Sequence record: PZ179885.1
Origin: a phage
Length of the DNA stretch: 40,778 nucleotides
Strand: one strand, 5' to 3'
Under the pieces are notes generated by a model, which saw nothing but the letters and a program-made list of their open reading frames with translations, ran no database searches and had not been told where the DNA came from. Position 1 is the first letter of the stretch, and every line of letters starts with the position of its first letter. This document shows, one piece after another, positions 1,862-40,284 of the stretch. The translations under genes were made by a program, and so were the position numbers.

Positions 1862-1884
1862 ACTTAACTATCACTATAGGGAAG
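1862..1884 (+). promoter_or_regulatory. phage RNAP promoter downstream of gene 19 (phiOR-like), +1 G at 1879
   Basis: ACTTAACTATCACTATAGGGAAG matches the 11-copy promoter family in this window; same position as T7 phiOR. Confidence 0.8.
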
Positions 1885-2942: not shown

Positions 2943-2971
2943 TTGACTACAGGTCCAGACTATGGCTTAAT
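2943..2971 (+). promoter_or_regulatory. candidate host sigma70 early promoter (A2-like)
   Basis: TTGACT-17 bp-CTTAAT; good -35, weak -10. Confidence 0.3.
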
Positions 2972-3084
2972 AGCTTCCGTCAACACGACACGGCAACAAC
3001 CGGATAGTGAAGACGCCGGGGTCATCCCGGTTAAGTAGACAGCCTGATAAGTCATACGAACAACAGGCAGATGACAGAAAGTAG

Positions 3085-3114
3085 TTGACAAGATGTACCG
3101 ACTTAAAGTAGTAT
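3085..3114 (+). promoter_or_regulatory. host sigma70 early promoter (A3-like)
   Basis: TTGACA-18 bp-TAGTAT followed by GTACCACATCAACACGAAACAACGGTGA, closely resembling the T7 A3 promoter and its initial transcribed region as I recall them. Confidence 0.65.
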
Positions 3115-3290: not shown

Positions 3291-3308
3291 AACTGAGAGG
3301 ATATAACT

Positions 3309-3812
3309 ATGGAACGTAACGCTAACGCATACTATGAGCTGCTGGCTGCAACCGTTGAGGCATTTATCGAGCGTATTCAGTACTACCACCTGACTAAAGA
3401 TGATGACTACAGCGATGCGCTGCATGAGGCCGTAGACGGTCAGGTTCCGCACTATTACCACGAGATTTTTACGGTGATGGCTGCTGATGGTATAGACCAC
3501 GAGTTCGAAGACTCTGGGCTGATGCCTGAAACCAAGGACGTAACGCGTATCCTACAAGCTCGCATCTATGAGGCACTTTATAACGACGTGTCTAATAGCT
3601 TGGATGTAGTCTGGTTTGAGGATGAAGAGGCAGACGAAGAGGATGAATATTGGGTAGTTGACGCTAAAACAGGCGCAATAATTGTGCAAGCTGTAGCTCT
3701 TGAGGTCGCTACTGCATGTGCCAAGCTCAACTATACGATAGGTCGCCACCTGAAGGTGGAAGACATCAATGATAACGTAGTGTTCGACCCTGCGGCTGAG
3801 GACTGCGAGTGA
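3309..3812 (+). CDS. 0.3: Ocr-like DNA-mimic anti-restriction protein (gene 0.3) with C-terminal extension
   Basis: Residues 1-115 align with T7 Ocr ([43 protein letters not shown] versus T7 [43 protein letters not shown]); acidic tail, then about 50 extra residues. Confidence 0.85.
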
Positions 3813-3891
3813 TAGGCGGATATATGGCTAACGTGAAGGATTCTCACATAGAGGCCATGCTTAAGTCAGCGCTTAAAGATTTAGCTTACGA

Positions 3892-3943
3892 GTGATTAAC
3901 TACAGGTCGTTAACTCATAGCGGCCTGACTGATAGTCACTAAC
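3892..3943 (+). promoter_or_regulatory. conserved early-region element, putative RNase III site (R0.5-like)
   Basis: Second copy of the element at 3232-3290, with the exact 20-mer at 3924-3943. Confidence 0.4.
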
Positions 3944-3958
3944 TATAGGATAAACAAG

Positions 3959-4483
3959 ATGAAACTGATAGGCAAGGGCGCGTTCACTAAGTGCTACCTG
4001 AAGGACTGCGGGAAGCGTGTAATTCTGGTATCTTCAGACCCAATCAAGGAGTGTATGGCGTGGGGATGGTTCCCTGAGTCTCCACTGTTCCCTGAAGTCA
4101 AAATGATTGAGGTAGGCACGTATGAGATGAACTACATGCCACCAACACGAGGTATCAAGGCGCATTTAGATGACGACCAGTGGCAACTCTATCAGGTGTT
4201 GCGAGACTGCTTCTCACGGTCCCCTGTATTCTCTAGACCTGCTGAACTGTATCACAAGTGGTACGAGATATTCCAAGCTGCACACGACAGGTCTGAGACT
4301 GAGACTGTGCGGGAAGGTCTGATGGATGTGCTGATGGCTCTGGACGCTTGCGCTAACTTCGGGTCTGATATTCAGTTTGAGATAAGCCCACGAAATGTAC
4401 GGGCTGTGAATGGTAAGCTGATACTGGTTGACTGTTTCTTCCTTGTGTCCAAGCTGCAAGAGGTGAGGTCATCAAGATGGTAA
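3959..4483 (+). CDS. 0.7: short gene 0.7-like protein kinase (kinase domain only)
   Basis: IGKGAFTKCY...KRVILV resembles T7 gp0.7 LGNGHFSAAY...NRVIKV, and NGKLILVDCFF resembles T7 NGDVPYITDPVSF; 174 aa against roughly 359 aa in T7. Confidence 0.5.
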   Translation: MKLIGKGAFTKCYLKDCGKRVILVSSDPIKECMAWGWFPESPLFPEVKMIEVGTYEMNYMPPTRGIKAHLDDDQWQLYQVLRDCFSRSPVFSRPAELYHKWYEIFQAAHDRSETETVREGLMDVLMALDACANFGSDIQFEISPRNVRAVNGKLILVDCFFLVSKLQEVRSSRW

Positions 4484-4524
4484 CTTATGGTATCTGCCAG
4501 CACCACGTCACCAACGCCCGGCTT

Positions 4525-4626
4525 ATGGTCAAGACCGGGCAGTTAAACCACGATGCGACTATGCGCTACCTGAAAGCGGTCTACGAGGGCCGCAAGCGTA
4601 TACACGACAGTTTACACGCTGAGTGA
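4525..4626 (+). CDS. small early ORF (33 aa)
   Basis: MVKTGQLNHDATMRYLKAVYEGRKRIHDSLHAE; part of a chain of coupled small ORFs; weak support. Confidence 0.2.
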   Translation: MVKTGQLNHDATMRYLKAVYEGRKRIHDSLHAE

Positions 4627-4692
4627 CAGACGAGAGGTCATCGACTGATAGGTGGCCTCAAAGATTATCACTTACATTGATAGGGGTTAACT

Positions 4693-4797
4693 ATGAGCAC
4701 TGCAATCATCTGGACTATCTCAGGCTTCGTAGCGTGGGGAATGTTTACTCTAGTCTGCAAACTACCGGTCCTTACTCAACTGTTATGGGGCTTATGA
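4693..4797 (+). CDS. small hydrophobic peptide (34 aa)
   Basis: MSTAIIWTISGFVAWGMFTLVCKLPVLTQLLWGL; AGGGG upstream; its stop overlaps the next start (ATGA). Confidence 0.3.
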   Translation: MSTAIIWTISGFVAWGMFTLVCKLPVLTQLLWGL

Positions 4798-4997
4798 CTA
4801 TGAGTATCGCACTATTGATAGCCATAGGCTATGGACTTATCGCCTACGTGCTGGTGAGAGACATCAACAAAGCGCGTAAAGTCTACAAATTAAACTATGT
4901 ACGTCTGGGTCGCTGGACTGTACGTCAACCTAACGGACGATTCATGTGCAACTTAGCGAACGTCTGGGATATAGCAACTATTGGGAGCAAACTGTAA
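4794..4997 (+). CDS. small membrane protein (67 aa)
   Basis: MTMSIALLIAIGYGLIAYVLVRD... has an N-terminal transmembrane-like helix; coupled to neighbours through ATGA and TAATG overlaps. Confidence 0.4.
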   Translation: MTMSIALLIAIGYGLIAYVLVRDINKARKVYKLNYVRLGRWTVRQPNGRFMCNLANVWDIATIGSKL

Positions 4998-5323
4998 TGA
5001 ATAAGTCATACGGGATTAATCTGGTACACTCTATGGATGCAGAAATGAACATGTTGAGCCTACTGGCTACCGGGTATCGTCACGGAACATCAAGTCACAC
5101 CGCACGTCAACAGCAGGAGCGTGACCGTGTACTTCAGGCACGACTCCGTGCCGAGGGCCATAAGTCCGAACTGATGTGTCTGGCGTATGGTGGACGACCA
5201 ATCACCGACGATGGTAAACTTTTAGTCTCAGGCTGGAAGGCGATAGACCAACGGTCAACCATCAAGCACACGACTCACGGTGACTTCAGTCATCTTCACG
5301 CTAACCCACTGATATGCAAGTAA
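4997..5323 (+). CDS. hypothetical early protein (108 aa)
   Basis: ATG at 4997 overlaps the upstream stop (TAATG); no recognisable motif. Confidence 0.5.
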   Translation: MNKSYGINLVHSMDAEMNMLSLLATGYRHGTSSHTARQQQERDRVLQARLRAEGHKSELMCLAYGGRPITDDGKLLVSGWKAIDQRSTIKHTTHGDFSHLHANPLICK

Positions 5324-5328
5324 TTATG

Positions 5329-5351
5329 ACTTAACTATCACTATAGGACTC
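5329..5351 (+). promoter_or_regulatory. phage RNAP promoter immediately upstream of gene 1, +1 G at 5346
   Basis: ACTTAACTATCACTATAGGACTC; matches the family consensus at all positions I compared. Confidence 0.75.
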
Positions 5352-5410
5352 AAGGTCTAAGACTCCAAGTGAAAGACCAAAGAGACTCTAAGTGAAAGAC
5401 TAATAACAAG
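5349..5410 (+). promoter_or_regulatory. structured leader, putative RNase III site (R1-like)
   Basis: Contains CTCAAGGTCTAAGACT and a repeated AAGTGAAAGAC; positionally equivalent to T7 R1. Confidence 0.3.
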
Positions 5411-5420
5411 GACTTTAAGT

Positions 5421-8102
5421 ATGAGCGTCATCTCTATTGACAAACACGACTTCTCTGATGTGTCGAACGCCATTGAGCCGTTTAACCTGCTGGCTGACCA
5501 CTACGGGCAAGACCTTGCAGTCAAACAGCTTCAGCTTGAGCATGAGGCATACACAGAAGGCGAGCGACGTTTCATCAAGAACCTTGAGCGCCAGACTGAG
5601 CGCGGGGAATTGGCAGACAATCAGGTCGCCAAGCCTTTGATGCAGACTCTGGTCCCTAAGATTGCGCAAGCCGTCAGGGAGTGGCACGAAGGCCTAGACG
5701 GGAAGCTGTCAACCTCGCGTCCTAGCGTAGCGTTCACCATGTTGAGCACTGAAGAGAAGGCCGTAAAGGACCGCTCTATGCGCATCTCTTGCGAGTCTGC
5801 TGCGGTCATCATACTGAAGGTCATCCTCTCCAAGCTGGTCAAGCCTGAAGGGATACCGATTACACCGATGGCATCCGCGATAGGCCGCACACTTGAGGAC
5901 GAAATCCGCTTCGGTCGCATCCGTGACAAAGAGAAGGAGCACTTCAAGAAGGCGATAGCTGAGAACCTGAACAAGCGAGCTGGGGCATCCTACAAGAAAG
6001 CCTACATGCAAGCGGTCGAGGCGTCCATGCTGGAGCAAGGCCAACTGGAAGATGCATGGGGGACTTGGAGTCCTACAGAGGCTGTCCACGTTGGCATCAA
6101 GATGCTCGAGATTGTCATCCAGTCAACACAACTGGTCGAGCTTAAGCGGTACGGTGCTGGTAATGCAGCGGCTGACGTAGAGATGGTCCACCTGTCAGAC
6201 TTCTGGGTCAAGAAGATGGCACAACGAGGATTCAGCCTTGCGGGTATCGCTCCAGTCTACCAGCCTTGCGTCGTTCCACCTAAGCAGTGGACTGGTGTTG
6301 TAGGTGGTGGGTACTGGGCCAAAGGTCGCAGACCATTACCACTGATTCGCTTAGGGTCTAAGTCTGCGGTGGCACGTTACGAAGACGTGTACATGCCTGA
6401 AGTCTATGACGCTGTGAACATCATTCAGAATACACCTTGGAAAGTGAACAAGAAGGTGCTGGACGTGGTGAACATGGTCGAGAAGCTGAACAACACGCCT
6501 ATTGACGACATCCCTCAGATGGAACCACTGAAGCCTGAGGACTATGCAGGTGAGACTGAGGAGGAACTCAAGGCATGGAAGAAGGCTGCTGCTGGTATCT
6601 ATCGACGCGAGAAGGCCCGACAGTCGCGCAGATTGTCACTGAGCTTTATCGTTAACCAAGCGAACAAGTTCTCTCAGTTCAAGGCCATCTGGTTCCCGTA
6701 CAACATGGATTGGCGAGGGCGTGTCTACGCTGTCCCGATGTTCAACCCTCAGGGTAACGACATGCAGAAGGGCCTCCTGACTCTGGCAGTCGGCAAGCCT
6801 ATTGGTGCTGACGGTTTCAAATGGCTGAAGGTCCACGGTGCAAACTGTGCGGGTGTCGATAAAGTCACCTTCGAGGAGCGTATCAAGTGGGTGGAAGACA
6901 ACCACGAAAACATCATGGCTGCTGCTAAGGCACCGATGGATAGTATTGAGTGGTGGGGCAAGTTAGACTCTCCGTTCTGTTTCCTCGCGTTCTGCTTCGA
7001 GTATGCTGGCGTAATGCACCACGGCCTGTCTTACTCCTGCTCGCTGCCGATAGCGTTCGATGGGTCCTGCTCTGGTATTCAGCACTTCAGTGCGATGCTT
7101 CGTGACCACATCGGTGGACATGCAGTAAACCTGACGCCTTCCGGTAAGGTCCAAGACATCTACCGCATCGTGTCTGACCGCATTGAGGAGGAGCTTAAAG
7201 TCCTGCTGATTAACGGTACTGACAACGAGATGGTCACTCACGAGGATAAGAAAACTGGTGAGATTACCGAACGTATCAAGCTGGGGACACGAGAGCTGGC
7301 CCGTCAGTGGCTGCAATTCGGTATGTCTCGCTCGGTCACTAAGCGCTCGGTCATGACTCTGGCCTACGGGTCGAAAGAGTATGGGTTCGCCGACCAAGTG
7401 TTCGAAGACACCGTGATGCCAGCGATTGACTCAGGGTCTGGCGCTATGTTCACTGAACCAAGCCAAGCGTCTCGCTTCATGGCAAAGATGATTTGGGAAG
7501 CTGTGAGTGTGACAGTAGTTGCTGCGGTTGACGCGATGAAGTGGCTTCAAGGCGCTGCCAAGTTGCTGGCTGCTGAAGTGAAGGACAAGAAGACTGGTGA
7601 AATCCTGAAGCCATGCCTTCCGGTACACTGGGTCACACCTGATGGGTTCCCGGTCTGGCAGGAATACCGCAAGAAGGATACCACTCGTCTGAACCTGATG
7701 TTCTTAGGGTCATTCAATCTTCAGCCTACCGTCAACAAAGGTACGAAGAAAGAGCTGGACAAGCACAAGCAGGAGTCAGGCATTAGCCCTAACTTCGTCC
7801 ACTCACAAGATGGTAGCCACCTGCGGAAGACTGTAGTCCACACTCACCGAAAGTATGGCGTGATGTCATTCGCAGTGATTCACGATAGCTTCGGGACCAT
7901 CCCGGCTGACGCTGAGTATCTGTTCCGTGGCGTCCGTGAGACGATGGTAGAGACATACCGCGATAACGATGTGCTGCTTGACTTCTACGAGCAGTTTGAA
8001 TACCAGCTTCATGAAAGTCAGCGCGACAAGTTGCCTGAGCTTCCGAAGAAAGGTAAACTGAATATCGAAGACATCTTGTCTTCAGACTTTGCATTCGCTT
8101 AA
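5421..8102 (+). CDS. 1: single-subunit DNA-directed RNA polymerase (T7 gp1-like)
   Basis: 893 aa; long collinear identity with T7/T3 RNAP, including FPYNMDWRGRVYAVPMFNPQGNDM, SPFCFLAFCFEYAG, RSVTKRSVMTLAYGSKE, HDSFGT and the C-terminal SDFAFA. Confidence 0.99.
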   Translation: MSVISIDKHDFSDVSNAIEPFNLLADHYGQDLAVKQLQLEHEAYTEGERRFIKNLERQTERGELADNQVAKPLMQTLVPKIAQAVREWHEGLDGKLSTSRPSVAFTMLSTEEKAVKDRSMRISCESAAVIILKVILSKLVKPEGIPITPMASAIGRTLEDEIRFGRIRDKEKEHFKKAIAENLNKRAGASYKKAYMQAVEASMLEQGQLEDAWGTWSPTEAVHVGIKMLEIVIQSTQLVELKRYGAGNAAADVEMVHLSDFWVKKMAQRGFSLAGIAPVYQPCVVPPKQWTGVVGGGYWAKGRRPLPLIRLGSKSAVARYEDVYMPEVYDAVNIIQNTPWKVNKKVLDVVNMVEKLNNTPIDDIPQMEPLKPEDYAGETEEELKAWKKAAAGIYRREKARQSRRLSLSFIVNQANKFSQFKAIWFPYNMDWRGRVYAVPMFNPQGNDMQKGLLTLAVGKPIGADGFKWLKVHGANCAGVDKVTFEERIKWVEDNHENIMAAAKAPMDSIEWWGKLDSPFCFLAFCFEYAGVMHHGLSYSCSLPIAFDGSCSGIQHFSAMLRDHIGGHAVNLTPSGKVQDIYRIVSDRIEEELKVLLINGTDNEMVTHEDKKTGEITERIKLGTRELARQWLQFGMSRSVTKRSVMTLAYGSKEYGFADQVFEDTVMPAIDSGSGAMFTEPSQASRFMAKMIWEAVSVTVVAAVDAMKWLQGAAKLLAAEVKDKKTGEILKPCLPVHWVTPDGFPVWQEYRKKDTTRLNLMFLGSFNLQPTVNKGTKKELDKHKQESGISPNFVHSQDGSHLRKTVVHTHRKYGVMSFAVIHDSFGTIPADAEYLFRGVRETMVETYRDNDVLLDFYEQFEYQLHESQRDKLPELPKKGKLNIEDILSSDFAFA

Positions 8103-8117
8103 CAGGAGGAGAAGTAT

Positions 8118-8348
8118 ATGTCAATGAAACTTGTAGCACACAACAGGACATACAACGATGGGTCGGGACGTTGCCATGTAGAGCTGACTTATAAGGATTT
8201 AGTCATTATCCGAGACAGATTACAAGCGGGTGTGACTGGGTGGATTCAACCTAACGAGTACAACCTTATAGCCTCGATTGATGAAGTTCTTAACGCGTGG
8301 ATGCAAGACGAGCGCACTCAGTATCCATCATTCCCTATGATTAAATAA
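8118..8348 (+). CDS. hypothetical protein (76 aa)
   Basis: AGGAGG RBS; no motif recognised. Confidence 0.6.
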   Translation: MSMKLVAHNRTYNDGSGRCHVELTYKDLVIIRDRLQAGVTGWIQPNEYNLIASIDEVLNAWMQDERTQYPSFPMIK

Positions 8349-8648: not shown

Positions 8649-8671
8649 CCTAAACTATCACTATAGGATTA
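8649..8671 (+). promoter_or_regulatory. phage RNAP promoter (phi1.1-like), +1 G at 8666
   Basis: CCTAAACTATCACTATAGGATTA. Confidence 0.8.
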
Positions 8672-8712
8672 GACTCAAGGTCATGACTCAAAGTCGTGGC
8701 CTTCATGATTAA
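8669..8712 (+). promoter_or_regulatory. conserved intergenic element, putative RNase III site (R1.1-like)
   Basis: TTAGACTCAAGGTCAT...GTGGCCTTCATGATTAA; same element family as 16091-16133 and 40186-40230. Confidence 0.5.
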
Positions 8713-10296: not shown

Positions 10297-10332
10297 CAAC
10301 CCAGTGGTCTTCGGACTGCTGGGTTTCTTTGC
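10297..10332 (+). terminator. rho-independent terminator (TE-like early terminator)
   Basis: Hairpin AACCCAGTGG-TCTTCGGA-CTGCTGGGTT followed by TCTTTGC, immediately after the ligase gene, as in T7. Confidence 0.7.
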
Positions 10333-10370: not shown

Positions 10371-10393
10371 CCTAAGCTATCACTATAGGACAA
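10371..10393 (+). promoter_or_regulatory. phage RNAP promoter, +1 G at 10388
   Basis: CCTAAGCTATCACTATAGGACAA; one mismatch at -12. Confidence 0.65.
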
Positions 10394-13004: not shown

Positions 13005-13474
13005 TGACTCAGAAATATAGACTTAAAGTTAGCATCTACGGGTGGCCTACAGGTACTATCGTCACAAAATGTGCGAAAGACCCTGTACCAGTGCCTGGAC
13101 TTGTTCTGGTGGAATCCACTGAGCGTGGCCTCTACAAGCACGGAGCAGCGGGGCATAACAGTCAGCCTGACGGAATGTGGGGGGCATGGGTTTCAAATGA
13201 ATATCTTGAGGAAATTGTAGAGGATAAACCTCAAGTCCTGCCAGCCTCAAGCGTCCCTCCTGTCACCGTTAAACGTGAAGTCCTGACCATCGACAAGATT
13301 GGTGTAGGCCAGACGTTCATCGTCCACGGGAAGCCTGAAGAAGTTTACGTGAAGATTAGCAACTCACACGTCTTCAACCATAAGCGTCTCCAGATGCACA
13401 CCACGGACGCACAGCGCTTCACCCAGCACCTGAATCTAGTGGTCGTAGAATTGGTGGTGTACAATGGTAAGTAA
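13004..13474 (+). CDS. hypothetical protein (156 aa) between genes 3 and 3.5
   Basis: AAGGAG 8 nt upstream; ATG overlaps the gene 3 stop by one base; no homology recognised. Confidence 0.6.
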   Translation: MTQKYRLKVSIYGWPTGTIVTKCAKDPVPVPGLVLVESTERGLYKHGAAGHNSQPDGMWGAWVSNEYLEEIVEDKPQVLPASSVPPVTVKREVLTIDKIGVGQTFIVHGKPEEVYVKISNSHVFNHKRLQMHTTDAQRFTQHLNLVVVELVVYNGK

Positions 13475-13922
13475 GGTACAGTTCAACCCACGGTCCCGGA
13501 CTGACGCTATCTTCGTTCACTGTTCGGCTACCAAGCCAGAGATGGACATCGGGGTAGAGACCATCCGTATGTGGCACAAGCAGCAAGGCTGGCTGGACGT
13601 AGGCTACCACTTTATCATCAAGCGTGATGGCACTGTGGAAGAGGGTCGCCCGGTCAATGTCGTAGGGTCACACGTTAAGGACTGGAACTCAAAGTCCGTA
13701 GGCGTCTGCCTTGTAGGTGGAATTGACGCTAAGGGCAAGTTTGAAGCTAACTTCACTCCGGACCAGATGAACTCCCTGCGCAACAAGCTGGCTGACCTGA
13801 AGGCCCTGTATCCTCAGGCAGAAATCAAAGCACACCATGACGTAGCACCGAAGGCGTGTCCAAGTTTCGACTTGCAGCGCTGGCTATCTACCAATGAACT
13901 GGTAACTTCCGACCGTGGTTAA
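13464..13922 (+). CDS. 3.5: lysozyme, N-acetylmuramoyl-L-alanine amidase (gene 3.5)
   Basis: 152 aa; TDAIFVHCSATKP, WLDVGYHFIIKRDGTVEEGR, HHDVAPKACPSFDL and C-terminal NELVTSDRG match T7 gp3.5. Confidence 0.97.
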   Translation: MVSKVQFNPRSRTDAIFVHCSATKPEMDIGVETIRMWHKQQGWLDVGYHFIIKRDGTVEEGRPVNVVGSHVKDWNSKSVGVCLVGGIDAKGKFEANFTPDQMNSLRNKLADLKALYPQAEIKAHHDVAPKACPSFDLQRWLSTNELVTSDRG

Positions 13923-13946: not shown

Positions 13947-14162
13947 ATGATTAAACTTATCGAATTTCTTGGTCGTCTGGTGGTGCGTGGTTATCGTCGT
14001 GCTGCGGTACTGGAACGAAAGGTAGCAGAGAAGACTGCTGACGGTGCGGCTGATGCTGCTGCTCTGGCTGACAAGCTGACCATCGCGTCACTGGAAGCTG
14101 GCATGAAGGCACGTCAAGCTGACACCAAAGCTGACCAGTTGGCTCAGTTCTTCAAAGCCTAA
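13947..14162 (+). CDS. hypothetical protein (71 aa)
   Basis: AAAGGAG RBS; Ala-rich, probably helical. Confidence 0.55.
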   Translation: MIKLIEFLGRLVVRGYRRAAVLERKVAEKTADGAADAAALADKLTIASLEAGMKARQADTKADQLAQFFKA

Positions 14163-14180
14163 ACTATCACCTTAGGGATG
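14158..14180 (+). promoter_or_regulatory. degenerate phage promoter-like sequence upstream of gene 4, putative +1 at 14175
   Basis: CCTAAACTATCACCTTAGGGATG; mismatches at -4 and -3; followed by hairpin GGGACA-ATAAGTCC-TGTCCC. Confidence 0.35.
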
Positions 14181-16107: not shown

Positions 16108-16133
16108 GTCTAGACTCAAGGTCATTCACAGCG
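16091..16133 (+). promoter_or_regulatory. conserved intergenic element, putative RNase III site
   Basis: TAGACTCAAGGTCATTCACAGCGAGTGGCCTTTATGATTAGAC; the inner stem AGGUCA/UGGCCU can pair. Confidence 0.5.
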
Positions 16134-16170
16134 AGTGGCCTTTATGATTAGACTAAACGGAGGATTAACC

Positions 16171-25192: not shown

Positions 25193-25297
25193 ACCAAGAG
25201 AAAGACTCAAGGTTTTCCCCTATTACTTCAGTCCATACGGATTGGGCGTACAGTAAGTAATAAACTTTATCTTTCAATTGAATAGGAGAATTATCAT

Positions 25298-29720: not shown

Positions 29721-29743
29721 CCTTAACTATCACTATAGGGACT
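29721..29743 (+). promoter_or_regulatory. phage RNAP promoter (phi13-like), +1 G at 29738
   Basis: CCTTAACTATCACTATAGGGACT. Confidence 0.8.
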
Positions 29744-29782
29744 ATAGGCCCTTTAAGTTATAATACTTTAATAGGAGACTTT

Positions 29783-40182: not shown

Positions 40183-40185
40183 GTG

Positions 40186-40230
40186 TTAGACTCAAGGTCA
40201 TTACTATGTGTAGTGGCCTTTATGGTTAAC
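40186..40230 (+). promoter_or_regulatory. conserved intergenic element, putative RNase III site (R18.5-like)
   Basis: TTAGACTCAAGGTCATTACTATGTGTAGTGGCCTTTATGGTTAAC; third member of the element family. Confidence 0.5.
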
Positions 40231-40284
40231 ACTAACTAGTGGAGGCGACTCTACGTGAAAATCTGATAAACCGGGAGGGCAACT

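Follow-up and report, generated by a model that had tools for sequence, protein, structure and literature searches.

A phage-type promoter directly before the gene of the phage RNA polymerase raises the question of whether the enzyme transcribes its own gene. We analysed such a locus in a phage genome (PZ179885.1), and the whole stretch of DNA examined, 40,778 nucleotides, is called the window here. The window belongs to Kayfunavirus (K1F/EcoDS1 group), with 95–96% identity to Kayfunavirus genomes over 4900–8200, the gene 1 region. It is circularly permuted: its position 2461 corresponds to position 1 of K1F and EcoDS1. The terminal direct repeat of about 204 bp is present as one collapsed copy at 2461–2664, and gene 19 is cut by the start of the window. 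Six copies of ACCTACAGTC with a period of 14–15 bp follow the terminal repeat on its inner side, at 2689–2772; related loci have 5–8 copies of this repeat, which the record of phage CR8 annotates as a repeat region.

Our results suggested that the site before gene 1, named phi1 here, very probably works as a promoter for the T7-type RNA polymerase that the phage itself encodes.

The promoter site before gene 1

The locus contains the following features.

4946–5323, plus strand: gene 0.38 homologue (phrog_7066, function unknown), the last early gene 5′ of gene 1, whose stop lies 5 nt 5′ of phi1
5329–5351, plus strand: predicted cognate phage RNA polymerase promoter (phi1), frame −17 to +6, predicted +1 at G5346; the 23-mer is ACTTAACTATCACTATAGGACTC
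5352–5420, plus strand: leader of the predicted phi1-initiated transcript (75 nt when counted from 5346), 64% A+T, with an AAGGA ribosome-binding site at 5408–5412, 8 nt 5′ of the ATG
5421–8102, plus strand: gene 1, single-subunit RNA polymerase of 893 aa, 63–64% identical to T7 RNA polymerase

The gene 0.38 homologue stops at 5323, and phi1 lies in the 97 nt that separate it from gene 1; the predicted +1 of phi1 (5346) is 75 nt from the gene 1 ATG. phi1 has the promoter layout of the T7 group (Studiervirinae), which is 23 bp with the core CACTATAGG at −7 to +2 and G at +1 and +2. The near-consensus promoter that a preliminary description had placed directly upstream of the RNA polymerase gene was found at exactly that position on the plus strand. 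Its 3′ edge ends 69 nt 5′ of the ATG of the 893-aa polymerase ORF, and it scores like the other cognate promoters of the genome. ACTTAACTATCACTATAGGACTC had no match in 100 shuffled versions of the window when as many as 3 mismatches were allowed. No terminator-like hairpin was seen from 5346 to gene 1, and the phi1-initiated leader folded alone gave no significant structure (z +0.68).

Ten sites in the window fit [AC]CT[AT]AACTATCACTATAGG, with +1 at 1879, 5346, 8666, 10388, 11809, 20993, 24208, 25188, 29738 and 37418. The other nine promoters served to build a position weight matrix with which phi1 was scored, and these nine were scored leave-one-out. phi1 reached 30.2 bits (leave-one-out) versus 28.3–34.3 for the other nine, and its specificity region (−17 to −8) fits its own set. 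The best candidate after eleven sites in the matrix scan of the window had 17.7 bits, which leaves a clear gap between phi1 and the background. Promoter strength is not derivable from the sequence alone. The eleventh site is a weaker promoter at 14158–14180 (CCTAAACTATCACCTTAGGGATG, 25.3 bits, +1 at 14175), which precedes gene 4 and matches a 'phi' annotated in EcoDS1.

The initial bases of phi1 are GGAC, like those of the class II-region sites at 10388 (GGACAA) and 11809 (GGACAG). phi10 (25188), the strongest promoter, starts with GGGAGA; positions +3 to +6 of phi1 are different (ACTC). At phi13 (+1 at 29738), a second core-like GACTATAGG follows 9 bp on and makes CACTATAGGGACTATAGG (29731–29748). 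This second copy has no matching −17 to −8 region and is probably incidental.

One further promoter is closely related to phi1.

1862–1884, plus strand: phiOR, +1 at 1879, the sole cognate promoter from gene 19 to phi1

phi1 and phiOR have the same sequence from −17 to +2. About 30 bp of extra likeness (CTAACCnACTG...AAG) was also observed 5′ of −17, spanning 1834–1880 for phiOR and 5301–5347 for phi1, and it is not in the other promoters. At 5301–5323 it overlaps the end of gene 0.38. This likeness is possibly a duplication or a shared upstream element.

Conservation of phi1 and covariation with the polymerase

We surveyed 80 loci encoding relatives of the polymerase. For each locus its own promoter consensus was derived, and the sites were listed relative to gene 1. 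Five loci were left out of the counts, namely one whose gene 1 start is missing (L037), two short contigs with too few core sites (L029 and L043), and two whose derived set had three sites each (L031 and L072). In the Kayfunavirus clade, whose polymerases are 88–99% identical to that of the window, a cognate site within 400 bp before gene 1 was found in 22/22 loci, all at −75 to −81, and in none of the 52 assessable T7-, T3-, Berlin-, K11- and KP32-like loci (58–64% identical); the surveyed relatives are not independent, and this presence pattern rests on perhaps four lineages. Citrobacter phage CR8 (L015), with a polymerase 78% identical, has a cognate site at −102.

The 136-nt region with phi1 was found in 219 phage records. 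Among 16 closely related phages (group A), none of the 23 columns of phi1 was variable; the variable columns were 16 of 60 just upstream and 4 of 34 just downstream. In the group with 93–94% identity (group B), position −2 of phi1 is A (CACTAAAGG). This base departs from the group's own consensus, so phi1 may be deliberately weak there. The comparative evidence points to selection on phi1 as a promoter.

Good cognate promoter matches were also seen within or before the early region of more distant loci, 0.6–1.6 kb 5′ of gene 1, in L042 (T3-like; 9384 and 8432) and in L065 (8671). One example from a distant relative is CAATCACCCTCACTAAAGGGAAT at −617. Read-in of the polymerase to gene 1 may therefore not be confined to Kayfunavirus. 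A simple pattern search found no SP6-type promoter before the SP6 polymerase gene.

The polymerase of the window phage has the specificity loop RLNLMFLGSFNLQ. Two relatives, L017 and L041 (polymerase 88% identical), have the loop RLDLMFLGTFRLQ instead, and the differences are N748D and N756R in T7 numbering. Every promoter of these two phages, the phi1 equivalent included, reads ATTAAACCCTCACTATAGG, with T changed to C at −10 and A changed to C at −9. The site before gene 1 is ATTAAACCCTCACTATAGGACTC, and both of its flanks are still homologous to the window. Structural and genetic work on the T7 and T3 polymerases established that residues 748 and 756 read positions −10 and −9. In CR8 the loop is different again, and so is the site before gene 1, AAGGAAGGTACACTATAGGGGTT, which matches it. 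phi1 has thus tracked the specificity of the polymerase at least twice, which is hard to explain unless the polymerase uses the site. This covariation is strong indirect evidence that phi1 is used by the polymerase.

L017 and L041 form a sublineage of Kayfunavirus that switched to a T3-like specificity, judged from the residues aligned with T7 746–758 (loop RLDLMFLGTFRLQ) and from the promoters (AAACCCTCACTATAGG). They are a natural case of polymerase/promoter co-evolution inside one genus. In engineered enzymes, T7 polymerase with a grafted K1F-type loop is active on a promoter that has the consensus bases of the K1F subfamily at −12 to −7, and this K1F-loop polymerase is orthogonal to T7, T3 and N4 promoters (PMC3458549).

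Other roles for the conserved site

phi1 may be a real promoter whose selected role is to replace a missing phiOL as the first cognate promoter entering the cell, rather than autoregulation of the polymerase. The fast phage polymerase would take over pulling the genome in and would reinforce genes 1.1–1.3 and beyond, and the extra gene 1 mRNA would be a by-product. We regard this as possible rather than likely. Genome entry of T7 is driven by transcription. No phiOL-type site was found between the left end of the genome (2461) and phi1 (5346) in the window, in 11 Kayfunavirus contigs starting at the genome end (L004, L005, L008, L010, L011, L013, L014, L018, L020, L021 and L022), or in the annotation of EcoDS1. 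The majority of the distant loci carry a phiOL-type site 2.2–3.4 kb upstream of gene 1, and the T7- and K11-like loci have phiOL instead of a gene 1 site. In a clade without phiOL, phi1 is therefore the first cognate promoter on the entering genome. The extended upstream likeness between phi1 and phiOR is also consistent with a role in entry. However, the next promoter (8666) already serves genes 1.1–1.3. Moreover, transcription from phi1 must cross gene 1 first, so feedback would follow anyway and the entry and feedback roles are not exclusive.

phiOL also bears on the comparison with T7. The T7 RNA polymerase gene had been described as served only by host promoters. It is correct that T7 has no promoter directly before gene 1, but at position 405 it has phiOL, with the entire early region and with it gene 1 downstream, so T7 is not strictly host-promoter-only. 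Like phi1, phiOL lets the polymerase read into its own gene. It differs in lying 2.8 kb upstream of gene 1 and before the host promoters, and it is followed by AT-rich DNA.

A second alternative concerns the RNA at this position.

5335–5398, plus strand: predicted RNA hairpin with the promoter core (−11 to +6) as its 5′ arm; −17.2 kcal/mol, z −1.8 (weak evidence)

The conserved element could be chiefly an RNA processing or structure signal in the early host-made transcripts, an RNase III site equivalent to T7 R1, with the promoter-like sequence kept as the 5′ arm. In the predicted fold, promoter positions −8 to +6 pair with 5382–5395, and only transcripts reading through from upstream contain the whole hairpin. 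Folding also gave corresponding hairpins for two other sequence groups (L011 and L017; z about −1.9), and in group B the T>A change at −2 of phi1 has its counterpart in the 3′ arm, where the pair goes from U-A to A-U. GACTCAAGGT begins at +2 of phi1; the same 5′ motif is found in the RNase III-type hairpins at 8672, 16113 and 40189 and in T7 R0.5 and R1.1. The hairpin further resembles an R1-type site in its 5′ motif GACUCAAGGUC and in its location 3′ of the last early gene and 5′ of gene 1, where T7 has R1.

The predicted structure fits an RNase III site less well. The hairpin at 5335–5398 has no upper stem of 9–12 bp closed by GUGGCCUU and followed by UAUGAUU, only GGUCU/AGACC (5 bp), and it lacks the 3′ motif GGCCUUUAUGAUU of the canonical sites. 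The full upper stem is present at 8672, 16113 and 40189. A consensus fold of nine leader sequences (RNAalifold) was weak and showed no compensatory pairs, in part because the 3′ arm of group B was misaligned; the hairpin idea comes from separate single-sequence folds, and their z-scores are marginal. CR8 keeps the promoter but folds differently. In L017 and L041, the changes at −10 and −9 follow the specificity of the polymerase, whereas the hairpin partner is unchanged, so it is promoter function that appears to be constrained. We therefore consider it improbable that phi1 is kept chiefly as an RNA signal. A role of the hairpin, possibly as a diverged R1-like RNase III site, can only be additional to that of the promoter.

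The three canonical T7-type RNase III-like hairpins (UAGACUCAAGGUCAU...GUGGCCUUUAUGAUUA) are at 8668–8712, 16109–16152 and 40185–40232. The first of them immediately follows the promoter at 8666, an arrangement shared with phi1.1A and R1.1 of T7. A fifth copy of GACTCAAGGT at 25204, after phi10, forms no canonical RNase III-like hairpin.

That phi1 primes DNA replication as an origin promoter, like T7 phiOL or phi1.1A/B, is highly improbable and was rejected on A+T content: T7 origins are phage promoters followed by AT-rich DNA, and although phi1 resembles phiOR, upstream flank included, it is followed by no AT-rich stretch (>75% A+T), reaching at most 66.7% A+T per 60 nt versus 78–82% after T7 phi1.1B and phiOL, and 3′ of it come the ribosome-binding site of gene 1 and its coding sequence.

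The proposed feedback loop and its precedents

Self-transcription of gene 1 from phi1 would also draw on three other elements of the genome.

2943–2979 and 3085–3114, plus strand: predicted early promoters for the host polymerase (sigma-70), homologous to two of the three in the EcoDS1 annotation
10298–10325, plus strand: early terminator TE for the host polymerase, 3′ of gene 1.3 (ligase), by sequence and EcoDS1 annotation
13464–13922, plus strand: gene 3.5 homologue (amidase/lysozyme)

With TE after gene 1.3 and the host promoters at the left end, gene 1 lies within a host-transcribed early operon, as in T7. Sequence and annotation thus provide a separate host-promoter route to the first polymerase molecules. 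No ORF in the early region (3300–5323) matches T7 gene 0.7 (kinase and host shut-off) in size; the region contains just an ocr-like gene and small ORFs of unknown function.

The arrangement at phi1 is that of a natural autogene, with a cognate promoter directly 5′ of the polymerase gene, on the same strand and without an intervening terminator. Because this promoter is aimed at gene 1 with no hairpin between and appears to be under selection, self-transcription of gene 1 would be its natural consequence, and positive feedback on gene 1 is the most likely outcome. In the proposed sequence of events, the host polymerase would transcribe from the left-end sigma-70 promoters (about 2943–3114) through gene 1 to TE and yield the first polymerase molecules. 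The new phage polymerase would start at G5346 and produce more gene 1 mRNA with a 75-nt unstructured leader, and it would also read on into the class II genes. The result would be a self-amplifying loop independent of the host polymerase, which gp2 later inhibits.

T7 gp3.5 inhibits the phage polymerase, preferentially at class II promoters. By analogy, the product of 13464–13922 is a candidate brake on the loop. The GGAC start of phi1, like that of the class II-region promoters, makes it probable that gp3.5 lysozyme later damps the loop, as it does T7 class II promoters. Initiation at 5346, the feedback and its damping by gp3.5 are what we infer for this phage.

In the engineered T7 autogene of Dubendorff and Studier from 1991, a cognate promoter on gene 1 reportedly leads to self-amplifying expression. 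That construct differs from phi1 in being artificial, and it is tolerated only with lysozyme or lac control.

phi1 is not new. It is a genus-wide trait and is already annotated in public records. In EcoDS1 (GenBank EU734172), a 'promoter phi' at 2244–2266 has the identical 23-mer between gene 0.38 and gene 1, with the same distance to the ATG, and is annotated 70 nt before gene 1. EcoDS1 belongs to the same genus and has otherwise the same promoter set (phi1.6, 2.5, 6.5, 9, 10, 13, 17 and OR; no phiOL), so that it shows no substantive difference from the window; its site is known as an annotation, and no published functional tests of it were found. The K1F records NC_007456 and AM084414 carry no promoter annotation. 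In the literature searched, which did not cover the K1F genome paper (Scholl and Merril 2005), neither transcript start mapping nor in vitro transcription was found for any Kayfunavirus. One of the CTWAACTATCACTATAGG repeats listed in a 2026 Kayfunavirus genome paper lies where the gene 5′ of the polymerase gene ends (PMC13298934).

Similar sites have been predicted by depositors in other genera. CR8 (Caroctavirus, HG818824, 3356–3378) has a cognate-type promoter 80–110 nt before its polymerase gene, with the specificity AAGGAAGGTACACTATAGG, and it keeps a 0.7-like gene. Pseudomonas phage UNO-SLW4 (Pifdecavirus, KX449363, 3814–3839) has a promoter at the same distance of 80–110 nt, with the specificity AAAACCCTCACCTAAA.

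The closest functional precedent is Pseudomonas phage LUZ100 (Putzeys et al. 2023), in which a phage-specific promoter, also called phi1, lies directly upstream of the polymerase gene, as in the window, and its start was mapped by ONT-cappable-seq (PMC10134795). The authors propose that host read-through comes first and is followed by a positive feedback loop (PMC10134795). LUZ100 differs in its promoter motif and genus and in its mapped start, the site of the window being predicted from the DNA. In addition, a MarR-like repressor and an integrase are thought to gate the LUZ100 promoter, and neither is among the early genes examined in the window. No MarR-type repressor or lysogeny module was found among the early ORFs examined, whose matches are ocr-like or PHROGs of unknown function, and the records of related phages carry no integrase or repressor annotation.

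A broader reading takes Kayfunavirus and Caroctavirus together as strictly lytic phages in which a promoter immediately adjacent to gene 1 would have taken the place of the left-end promoter phiOL, forming a natural autogene with two differently handled classes of polymerase mRNA. Host read-through transcripts would be structured or processed at the hairpin, and self-made transcripts would start inside the hairpin and have an open leader. We consider this full combination rather unlikely and offer it tentatively.

phi1 adds little as a discovery, since the records of EcoDS1 and CR8 already mark the site and feedback of this kind has been proposed in print for LUZ100 (PMC10134795). For annotation, the lesson is to add phi1 as a promoter to about 200 related records that lack it. 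Several K1F-like phages are therapy candidates and sources of orthogonal polymerase/promoter pairs. In T7, no more polymerase is made after shut-off of the host enzyme. A self-transcribed polymerase gene would change this timing logic taught from T7. In K1F-like phages, the supply of polymerase could keep rising independently of the host, which matters for infection modelling and genome engineering.
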